From sequence record KP682380.1: a DNA stretch of 64,000 nt. One strand, given 5' to 3'. Position numbers: made by a program. The stretch is from Escherichia phage PA27. The stretch's first letter is position 1; each line of letters begins with the position of its first letter. This document shows, in pieces, positions 6,001 through 9,000 of this stretch.

Positions 6001-9000
6001 ACATGCTGTACTGCACCTGGGCCATGTAAGCCGACTTTATGGCCTCGAAACCACCGAGCCGGAACTTCATGAAATCCCGGGAGGTAAACGGGCATTTCAG
6101 CTCAAGGCCATTGCCGTCACTGCATAAACCATCGGGAGAGCAGGCGGTACGCATACTTTCGTCGCGATAGATGATCGGGGATTCAATAACATTCACGCCG
6201 GAAGTGAACTCAAACAGGGTTCTGGCGTCGTTCTCGTACTGTTTTCCCCAGGCCAGTGCTTTAGCGTTAACTTCCGGAGCCACACCGGTGCAAACCTCGG
6301 CAAGCAGGGTGTGGAAGTAGGACATTTTCATGTCAGGCCACTTCTTTCCTGAGCGGGGCTTTGCTATCACGTTGTGAACTTCTGAAGCGGTGATGACGCC
6401 GAGCCGTAATTTGTGCCATGCATCATCCCCCTGTTCGACAGCTCTCACGTCGATTCCGGTACGCTGCAGGATAATGTCCGGTGTCATGCAGCCACCTTCT
6501 GCTCAGAGGCTTTCTGTTTCAGGAATCCAAGAACTTTCACTGCTTCGGCCTGTGTCAGTTCTGACGATGCGCGAATGTCGCGGCGAAATATCTGGGAACA
6601 GAGCGGCAATAAGTCGTCATCCCATGTTTTATCCAGGGCGATCAGCAGAGTGTTAATCTCCTGCATGGTTTCATCGTTAACCGGAGTGATGTCGCGTTCC
6701 GGCTGGCGTTCTGCAGTGTATGCAGTATTTTCGACAATGCGCTCGGCTTCATCCTTGTCATAGATACCAGCAAATCCGAAGGCCAGACGGGCACACTGAA
6801 TCATGGCTTTATGCCGTAACATCCGTTTGGGATGCGACTGCCACGGGCCGGTGATTTCTCTGCCTTCGCGGGTTTTGAATGGTTCGCGGCGGCATTCATC
6901 CATCCACTCGGTAACGCAGATCGGATGATTACGGTCTTTGCGGTAAATCCGGCATGTACAGGATTCATTGTCCTGCTCAAAGTCCATGCCATCAAACTGC
7001 TGGTTTTCATTGATGATGCGGGACCAGCCATCAACGCCCACCACCGGAACGATGCCGTTCTGCTTATCAGGGAAGGCGTAAATTTCTTTCGTCCACGGAT
7101 TAAGGCCGTACTGGTTGGCGACGATCAACAATGCGATGAACTGCGCATCGCTGGCATCACCTTTAAATGCCGTCTGGCGAAGAGTGGTGATCAGTTCCTG
7201 TGGGTCGACAGAATCCATGCCGACACGTTCAGCCAGCTTCCCTGCCAGCGTTGCGAGTGCTGTACTCATCCGCTTTATACCTCTGAATCAATATCAACCT
7301 GGTGGTGAGCAATGGTTTCAACCATGTACCGGATGTGTTCTGCCATGCGCTCCTGAAACTCAACATCGTCATCAAACGCACGGGTAATGGCTTTTTTGCT
7401 GGCCCCGTGGCGTTGCAAATGATCGATGCAGAGTGATTCAAACAGGTGCTGGGGCAGACCTTTTCCCATGTCGTCTGCCAGTTCTGCCTCTTTCTCTTCA
7501 CGGGCGATCTGCTGGTAGTGACGCGTCCAGCTCTGAGCCTCAAGACGATCCTGAATGTAATAAGCGTTCATGGCTGAACTCCTGAAATAGCTGTGAAAAT
7601 ATCGCCCGCGAAATGCCGGGCTGATTAGGAAAACAGGAAAGGGGGTTAGTGAATGCTTTTGCTTGATCTCAGTTTCAGTATTAATATCCATTTTTTATAA
7701 GCGTCGACGGCCTCACGAAACATCTTTTCATCGCCAATAAAAGTGGCGATAGTGAATTTAGTCTGGATAGCCATAAGTGTTTGATCCATTTTTTGGGACT
7801 CCTGGCTGATTAAGTATGTCGATAAGGCGTTTCCATCCGTCACGTAATTTACGGGTGATTCGTTCAAGTAAAGATTCGGAAGGGCAGCCAGCAACAGGCC
7901 ACCCTGCAATGGCATATTGCATGGTGTGCTCCTTATTTATACATAACGAAAAACGCCTCGAGTGAAGCGTTATTGGTATGCGGTAACGCCGCGCTCAGGC
8001 GGCTTTGATAGTCATATCATCTGAATCAAATATTCCTGATGTATCGATATCGGTAATTCTTATTCCTTCGCTACCATCCATTGGAGGCCATCCTTCCTGA
8101 CCATTTCCATCATTCCAGTCGAACTCACACACAACACCATATGCATTTAAGTCGCTTGAAATTGCTATAAGCAGAGCATGTTGCGCCAGCATGATTAATA
8201 CAGCATTTAATAAAGAGCCGTGTTTATTGAGTCGGTATTCAGAGTCTGACCAGAAATTATTAATCTGGTGAAGTTTTTCCTCTGTCATTACGTCATGGTC
8301 GATTTCAATTTCTATTGATGCTTTCCAGTCGTAATCAATGATGTATTTTTTGATGTTTGACATCTGTTCATATCCTCACAGATAAAAAATCGCCCTCACA
8401 TTGGAGGGCAAAGAAGATTTCCAATAATCAGAACAAGTCGGCTCCTGTTTAGTTACGAGCGACATTGCTCCGTGTATTCACTCGTTGGAATGAATACACA
8501 GTGCTGTGTTTATTCTGTTGTTTATGCCAAAAATAAAGGCCACCATCAGGCAGCCTTGTTGTAAATGTTGCAGGTATCAAGTAAGTAATTAGATGGAGCG
8601 CCATAAATTATGAATTCATCGTTTGTCGGGTCCATCTCCATCTCTTGTCCTATTGCCATTCTTGCGTCAGTGTCGTCAGCGGCGAAGCATAAAACAGCCC
8701 ACGCACCCATTGTTTTAAAAAGAACTGCAATTGGCTGTGGTTTTACTGAATTTGCGTTAGCGCGAAAATCACAAATCGCACTTTCATGAAATTCCATATA
8801 TCACCTCAAATAAGTGGTTTGCTGCCTAATTTCATTTTCTGGCGACCAACACAAGTCATCTTGCTGTCAGTTGTTTGGATTTACGGTAGCCTGCCGCGTA
8901 AAGAGCTACATTTGGAAGACAAGTTGAGCCTTCATATTTTCTGGTCAACGTTGTCAGTGTTATTACTTCTGCTCTCATTGCTGGTTTGCGTTTGCATTGT

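Follow-up and report, generated by a model that had tools for sequence, protein, structure and literature searches.

An N-linked accessory gene and a conserved hairpin at the edge of a putative PreS small RNA in the leftward early region of Escherichia phage PA27

Organization of the interval between ea10 and N

We analyzed the interval between the ea10 and N genes in a 64,000-nucleotide stretch of DNA from Escherichia phage PA27 (KP682380.1), hereafter the window, in which position 1 is the first letter. Two elements were of interest: an open reading frame encoding 83 amino acids (ORF83) and, downstream of it, a perfect inverted repeat that borders a putative homologue of the lambda small RNA (sRNA) PreS, also called LPR1. 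On the minus strand, the genes follow the order bet, gam, kil, cIII, ea10, ORF83, and N, and then come nutL and the pL promoter (9318–9346). Positions 8364–8860 are 100% identical to VT2-Sakai (Sp5), Stx2 II, phage 2851, and many further Shiga toxin (Stx)-converting phages, and PA27 is itself a Stx-converting lambdoid phage. A first-pass annotation of this DNA had placed an uncharacterized 83-residue reading frame in the position of ral and sieB; we recovered it as the sole open reading frame between ea10 and N. The interval as a whole is made up of two back-to-back modules on the minus strand, both belonging to the leftward early (pL) operon: ORF83 with its terminator, and the spacer that separates ea10 from ral in lambda.

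Comparison with lambda points to the exchange of a cassette. Between N and ea10, lambda carries sieB, orf28, and ral, whereas PA27 carries ORF83 alone. Window positions 8300–8562, and likewise the shorter stretch 8364–8562, are about 98% identical to the lambda ea10–ral spacer; this homology ends at the last codons of ORF83, and both ORF83 and Ral terminate in NKAA followed by the stop codon. At the opposite end of ORF83, homology returns for approximately 22 nt at the ribosome-binding site and the ATG-GAA that begins lambda orf28, marking the upstream junction of the cassette. Because homology breaks at these two places, ORF83 is a precise replacement of orf28 and ral. The two cassettes share the slot, the upstream junction, and the downstream junction, which lies inside a terminator-like hairpin. 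They differ in that lambda has two genes where PA27 has a single one, without sequence or profile similarity, and in that ral sits behind tL1 and sieB whereas ORF83 comes immediately after N.

The slot is hypervariable across phages, with Ral and the nucleotide-modification-associated protein Nmad5 both found there, in line with the suggestion of the first-pass annotation that it commonly houses genes of the anti-restriction or exclusion type. The inverted repeat does not belong to the region replaced relative to lambda; lambda is identical over 8467–8504.

ORF83 is a protein-coding gene linked to N

ORF83 begins with ATG, has the Shine-Dalgarno sequence GAGGTGA 3 nt upstream, and encodes a protein with a net charge of about −7. 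Relative to homologues of 72% identity, codon position 3 takes 43 of the 70 nucleotide substitutions, and the ratio of nonsynonymous to synonymous substitution rates (dN/dS) is 0.07–0.09; ORF83 is therefore a genuine protein gene under purifying selection. Its length of 83 amino acids is kept by the homologues in prophages of Citrobacter, Klebsiella, and Enterobacter. The PHROG family phrog_2471, which has no known function, matches residues 1–83 over the full length (E = 1.4e-61). Two word-index searches and an exhaustive search with a hidden Markov model against 1.8 billion representatives returned only close enterobacterial relatives, and the family is tiny and confined to prophages of the Enterobacteriaceae. 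Among complete E. coli genomes, 403 of 5426 (about 7%) carry ORF83, including that of O157:H7 Sakai.

Searches for a domain or fold were negative. ORF83 had no match in Pfam (E ≤ 0.1) or NCBIfam, none among the PADLOC models of anti-phage defense (E ≤ 1), and no significant match in a profile search of the PDB. Two AlphaFold runs gave models with mean confidence scores (pLDDT) of 54 and 57 and the element order alpha-beta-beta-alpha-beta-alpha; Foldseek searches of the PDB and BFVD produced no E-value better than 0.07.

Several candidate relatives and competing reading frames were rejected. ORF83 is not a relative of Ral (PF11058): it has no match to the Pfam model, against which lambda Ral scores 1.6e-48, and the hhalign probability was 0.2%. 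Likewise, no match to SieB (PF14163) was obtained at E ≤ 0.1. Two large proteins that scored well against the ORF83 profile in the exhaustive search, P0021 (3126 aa; E = 1e-35) and P0022 (1357 aa; E = 1e-13), are tandem-repeat proteins with 44 and 12 weak repeated matches, respectively, and were dismissed as false positives. A hydrophobic reading frame of 59 amino acids antisense to ORF83 (8610–8789, plus strand), considered as a hidden toxin, is lost in the ORF83 homologues. A reading frame of 51 amino acids (8449–8604, minus strand; phrog_31828, E = 1.6e-42) shares its sequence with ORF83 in another frame, with the terminator of ORF83, with the hairpin described below, and with the beginning of PreS; almost certainly, this frame is an error of gene calling that was later carried over into a PHROG family. 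A literature search for ECs1179 gave nothing useful.

We then compared the gene neighborhoods of ORF83 at 85 loci. A protein of the N type is encoded directly upstream at about 55 of them (about two-thirds), at a distance of 3–58 nt. In more than 30 cases, the neighbor is a lambda-type N separated from ORF83 by 8 nt, while the H-19B-type N lies at 58 nt, as it does in PA27, where the ORF83 start is 58 nt beyond the N stop codon. Those neighbors that carry a Pfam annotation are N_peptide or N36 genes. PreS follows ORF83 at only 34 of the 85 loci. Given that an N-family gene precedes ORF83 at about two-thirds of loci and PreS follows at so few, the conserved partner of ORF83 is N, and it is with N that ORF83 belongs.

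A predicted intrinsic terminator, here called T_A, spans the 3′ end of the ORF83 reading frame, covering its last codons and its stop. Its stem (AAGGCUGCC paired with GGUGGCCUU) has 9 bp with five G-C pairs, a loop of 4 nt, and a UAUUUUU tail, all features expected of intrinsic terminators. T_A is the first such element after pL, and the terminator scan shows none between the two. It is retained in nearly all copies of ORF83, whatever follows downstream, and its arms compensate in divergent homologues. Neither T_A nor the tight linkage of ORF83 to N had been reported in the first-pass annotation. With respect to lambda, T_A is the positional counterpart of tL1, which ends the immediate-early N transcript, in being the first intrinsic terminator after pL and N; unlike tL1, it comes after a second gene and overlaps the stop codon of that gene. 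The lambda homologue of T_A follows ral and is weakened by two substitutions, both in the arms, which are the only differences between the two stems (window 8544 and 8554; lambda 34085 and 34095). A lambda-type locus with both substitutions (L222) folds with −6.0 kcal/mol, compared with −13.9 kcal/mol for T_A of the window. Lambda, with tL1 located upstream, may thus be losing the terminator that follows ral.

Because no intrinsic terminator is predicted between pL and T_A, N and ORF83 would form one immediate-early leftward transcript. ORF83 would then be made at once on infection or induction, ahead of N-dependent read-through, and probably alongside N within the first minute after infection.

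A conserved hairpin borders a putative PreS homologue

In lambda, PreS (LPR1) is a Hfq-dependent sRNA encoded between ea10 and ral, approximately 88 nt in length with a processed form of approximately 68 nt; it is present in the lytic cycle only, has its 3′ end at tL2a, activates translation of dnaN, and represses alaS (bioRxiv 10.1101/2024.10.31.621285). The primers of that study delimit the sRNA as GAGCAAUG...CGAUUUUUUA, which on the minus strand of the window runs from 8470 to 8383; for the 5′ end we rely on the cloning boundary of those authors rather than on a mapped end. The processed form would begin near 8451. The window and lambda are identical at 87 of these 88 nucleotides with no gaps, the sole mismatch falling in the terminator loop (8401), well within the identity of at least 92% and the three gaps at most by which the preprint assigns sequences to LPR1 (bioRxiv 10.1101/2024.10.31.621285). 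The seed, including the positions altered in the mutants LPR1-M1 and LPR1-M2, is unchanged from lambda, and the predicted RNA is encoded immediately upstream of ea10 on the pL strand, with the tL2a hairpin and its run of U at the 3′ end. The spacer is thus predicted to encode a homologue of PreS, sharing with the lambda version its position, its seed, and a terminator made of a GC hairpin and U6. The gene upstream differs, being ral in lambda and ORF83 in PA27.

The inverted repeat adjoins this putative sRNA on its 5′ side. As had been reported, it is perfect, with nine of nine positions pairing in GTGTATTCA-N10-TGAATACAC at exactly 8472–8499. In the leftward RNA, three more pairs (U.G, U-A, and C-G) form within the 10-nt spacer, yielding a stem of 12 bp that includes one G.U pair and can be extended to 14 bp. 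The minus-strand hairpin folds with −21.7 kcal/mol (z = −6.8), accounts for 96% of the ensemble, survives in longer contexts, and is among the most stable local structures. The plus-strand fold is weaker (−16.6 kcal/mol, z = −2.45) and meets a competing alternative structure, and the G.U position becomes a C.A mismatch. The 3′ arm of the hairpin ends at 8472, one nucleotide before the 5′ end of PreS at 8470, and the 14-bp form takes in PreS nucleotide 8470 itself. The window contains 11 perfect 9-bp inverted repeats with spacers of 3–20 nt, where block shuffles give 3.8 ± 2.0. A single repeat of this size is not above chance; it is the near-invariance described below, together with the folding energy, that makes this one non-random.

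We compared about 150 copies of the hairpin and PreS, taken from IMG/VR and from reference phages. In these, the hairpin arms are near-invariant and conserved to the same degree as the PreS seed, in contrast to the tL2a loop and the base immediately 5′ of PreS, which change freely. Phages of the P22-like group keep both arms unchanged with a different loop, even as the sRNA body and terminator have diverged by approximately 30–40% with insertions and deletions. The hairpin and PreS stand behind at least 12 unrelated upstream genes, the stop codons of which lie 5–59 nt before the hairpin; these genes encode Ral, Nmad5, a HK97 gp45-like protein, DUF7446 and DUF7167 proteins, a membrane protein, and several orphans. 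Variation within the hairpin consists of one G.U-preserving change and four disruptive singletons, which is too little for a covariation test.

Individual loci in this set showed further departures from the lambda arrangement. Five P22-like loci (L008, L022, L044, L059, and L074) carry a PreS-like RNA that has diverged, its seed being changed to CUCGUUCUGGUUAAUCG and its terminator to GCCGCUC...GGGCGGC; two hybrids (L067 and L110) change between the lambda type and the P22-like type inside the sRNA. In HK022 (L009; AF069308, 26489–26600), an IS903 insertion has deleted the 5′ arm of the hairpin and left PreS intact, making this phage a natural hairpin knockout. In L099 and L115, from which PreS and ea10 are absent, the sequence switches at GGAGCAAT and continues without interruption as the leader and start codon of cIII. 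Matches in the genome_contigs collection (L130–L152) include many from Shewanella, Pseudomonas, relatives of Bacillus, and actinobacteria, on low-coverage contigs, some of about 48.4–48.5 kb. These properties suggest that most such matches represent contamination of assemblies with lambda control DNA, adding no diversity.

Interpretation of the hairpin

We propose that ORF83 is an immediate-early accessory protein and that the inverted repeat forms the 5′ boundary hairpin of the PreS module, a joint reading to which we assign a probability of roughly 0.55. The hairpin may position an endonucleolytic cut that frees PreS from the read-through transcript; after the cut, the upstream mRNA, of ORF83 or ral, would keep it as a stem-loop protecting its 3′ end. 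No sigma-70 promoter for PreS was found between T_A and the hairpin, either by scan or by eye. Hfq-dependent sRNAs such as CpxQ and SroC are cut from the 3′ untranslated regions of mRNAs. PreS resembles these in lying at the end of a transcription unit, in sharing the terminator of that unit, and in having a shorter processed form; it is unlike them in that a strong hairpin abuts its 5′ end. The preprint is silent on the formation of the PreS 5′ end, giving no promoter, RNase E, or RNase III data; its full lpr1 deletion leaves the hairpin in place, and the flanking 5′ hairpin is not discussed there (bioRxiv 10.1101/2024.10.31.621285). Our literature search on RNase III processing sites and tL1 gave nothing useful.

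Several observations weigh against this proposal. Scans anchored on each arm found no compensatory double changes in the hairpin among the approximately 150 copies, and its conservation could reflect a function at the DNA level or hitch-hiking with PreS. Two loci from IMG/VR (L099 and L115) have the hairpin without PreS, showing that it is not strictly tied to the sRNA. The immediate-early assignment of ORF83 rests on the absence of predicted intrinsic terminators, and Rho-dependent termination is not predictable here. Finally, the reported failure to delete ORF83 from a Sp5 lysogen, taken up below, fits a role in counter-defense poorly.

The conservation of the repeat might also have arisen without any function of its own, had it been retained inside a young and often exchanged PreS block or as a recombination linker at the edge of the cargo slot. 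The copies are nearly identical, making a recent common ancestry possible, mosaic joints cluster just upstream at GAATAA..GCACTG, and one 9-bp inverted repeat is statistically ordinary. Passive retention of this kind is difficult to reconcile, however, with arms that stay constant beside a freely varying tL2a loop and base 5′ of PreS, with the persistence of both arms in P22-like phages despite the divergence of the sRNA body and terminator, and with the stability of the fold (z = −6.8); we consider it rather unlikely. We judge a DNA site for a dimeric protein, i.e., a regulator of host or phage origin or a recombination protein, to be very unlikely. Such a site, which the first-pass annotation had entertained, would be compatible with perfect 9-bp arms whose centers are approximately two helical turns apart and with conservation at the level of sequence in the absence of covariation. 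Yet the rest of the 64-kb phage shows no enrichment of the half-site (17 matches with at most one mismatch, against 13.9 expected), leaving no sign of a DNA-binding regulon; no promoter lies near the repeat, and the additional G.U-based pairing is confined to the minus-sense RNA.

The same annotation had alternatively seen in the repeat, together with a U-rich tract on the plus strand, a possible terminator of a small antisense transcript, which would run rightward. The tract exists, with 16 T in 29 nt, but its T-rich part begins 9 nt past the stem and is interrupted. A weak promoter-like match at 8005–8034 on the plus strand could in principle supply such a transcript, although promoter-like matches are at chance level (four, against 2.8 expected). 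The terminator scan called the repeat on neither strand: the stem has only three G-C pairs out of nine and encloses a loop of 10 nt, and just three T occur in the 8 nt that follow the stem on the plus strand. Given also the weak plus-strand fold and the alternative structure that rivals it, termination of an antisense transcript is highly improbable. Our reading of the repeat as a boundary hairpin of PreS places it on the opposite, pL-transcribed strand. The terminator beside ea10, labeled tL1 in the first-pass annotation, is tL2a, the 3′ end of PreS. That annotation was hence right in what it observed and in recognizing an uncharacterized gene in the ral slot; it went astray in overlooking that the repeat and the adjoining terminator are the known PreS/tL2a module of lambda on the other strand.

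Possible roles of ORF83

ORF83 is an early accessory protein in our proposal, and its position suggests a small acidic binder that would counter host defense or modulate a host or N-linked factor. That it acts as an early counter-defense or host-modulating binder is a tentative suggestion, based on its small size, acidity, and early location in a slot that elsewhere holds Ral. Gene 0.3 of T7, which encodes Ocr, is an immediate-early counter-defense gene. Ocr and ORF83 are both small acidic proteins, and ORF83, like Ocr, would be made from the first transcript; the comparison is an analogy only, without support from sequence or fold.

A previous genetic study bears on this question. Marker-free in-frame deletion of ORF21 (ECs1180, identical to ORF83) and of ORF23 (ECs1184) failed in a K-12 lysogen of Sp5 (Mondal et al., 2016; PMC5155283), and the authors proposed that both deletions are lethal, with stable lysogeny depending on the two genes (PMC5155283). 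ORF83 might accordingly keep the lysogen alive or stable instead of serving in counter-defense, for example by inhibiting a toxic phage product in the manner of an antitoxin or by acting as a brake on killing driven by N and pL. Besides the failed deletion itself (PMC5155283), the tight coupling to N, with ORF83 often starting 8 nt after the N stop codon, speaks for such a role. The failure may nonetheless be technical: homology arms were first cloned in DH5alpha, a non-immune host (PMC5155283), and the arms around either gene would probably carry pL–N and, for ORF21, also cIII–kil. Moreover, truncated or chimeric remnants of ORF83 occur in prophages that retain repressor, N, cIII, and kil; ORF83 is missing from many lambdoid phages whose N is of the same types; the scan shows no promoter able to express ORF83 in a repressed prophage; and homologues of ECs1184 do not co-occur with those of ORF83. 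A role in lysogen stability therefore appears unlikely to us, and we treat the deletion report with caution because of the non-immune cloning hosts, the primers not being given, and the remnants in prophages with otherwise intact early regions.

Alternatively, ORF83 would be an immediate-early protein coupled to N and indispensable to the Sp5 lysogen, which would make it a new kind of lambdoid regulator or antidote restraining N or lethal functions of the early operon. If true, this would explain both the position of ORF83 behind N genes of different families and the failed deletion; we nevertheless think it improbable. With regard to the other gene of that study, ECs1184 (173 aa; 9857–10378, minus strand) lies between cI and pL, where lambda has rex, contains no recognizable domain, and belongs to phrog_2602, the function of which is not known. 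It is the sole other gene of Sp5 reported as undeletable (PMC5155283).

What is new at this locus is modest: a member of an uncharacterized accessory family whose association with N is notable, and a hairpin at the edge of a known sRNA. A clear phenotype of ORF83 would add either a new early factor of counter-defense or a new element controlling early transcription in lambdoid phages. The hairpin at the 5′ edge of PreS offers a concrete handle on the release of the sRNA from the early transcript. In lambda, PreS boosts the host sliding clamp; an intact PreS in PA27 may likewise support replication of the Stx phage and hence toxin output after induction.

Neighboring genes and features

The coordinates of the features discussed here are collected in Table 1.

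Table 1. Features of the ea10–N interval of the PA27 window and the basis of their assignment.
Feature	Position	Strand	Basis and remarks
N antiterminator, H-19B/933W type	8856–9128	−	Pfam PF25694 and annotation
Shine-Dalgarno sequence of ORF83 (GAGGTGA)	8801–8807	−	Sequence; alignment to lambda
ORF83 (VT2-Sakai H0090; Sakai Sp5 ECs1180/ORF21), 83 aa, acidic	8546–8797	−	Open reading frame listing, annotation, and PHROG match
Predicted intrinsic terminator T_A	8527–8557	−	Terminator scan; stem across last codons and stop of ORF83
RNA hairpin holding the inverted repeat	8467–8504	−	Folds; core 8472–8499, CAAC loop 8484–8487; identical in lambda
Putative PreS (LPR1) homologue, 88 nt	8383–8470	−	5′ end from primers P810/P1103, 3′ end from P1104
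PreS seed region	8419–8438	−	Primers P838 and P888; LPR1-M1 at 8429–8431, LPR1-M2 at 8419–8421
Predicted terminator tL2a (3′ end of PreS)	8384–8411	−	Terminator scan and preprint; stem 8390–8411, U6 8384–8389
ea10 (DUF2528)	7995–8363	−	Pfam and annotation; downstream neighbor of ORF83 and PreS

Upstream of ORF83, the frame of N is open over 114 amino acids from an upstream ATG (8856–9200, minus strand), whereas the annotated gene encodes 90 amino acids (273 nt) and starts with MSRKTEF. A small open reading frame in the RefSeq annotation, ECs_5705, overlaps the 5′ end of N. No Rfam family matched the ea10–N region; the only one nearby was the cIII thermoregulator (Lambda_thermo) at 7900–7935 on the minus strand, which scored 44 bits in a match clipped by the edge of the searched interval. 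Just upstream of cIII, a terminator-like hairpin is present at 7952–7971 on the same strand.

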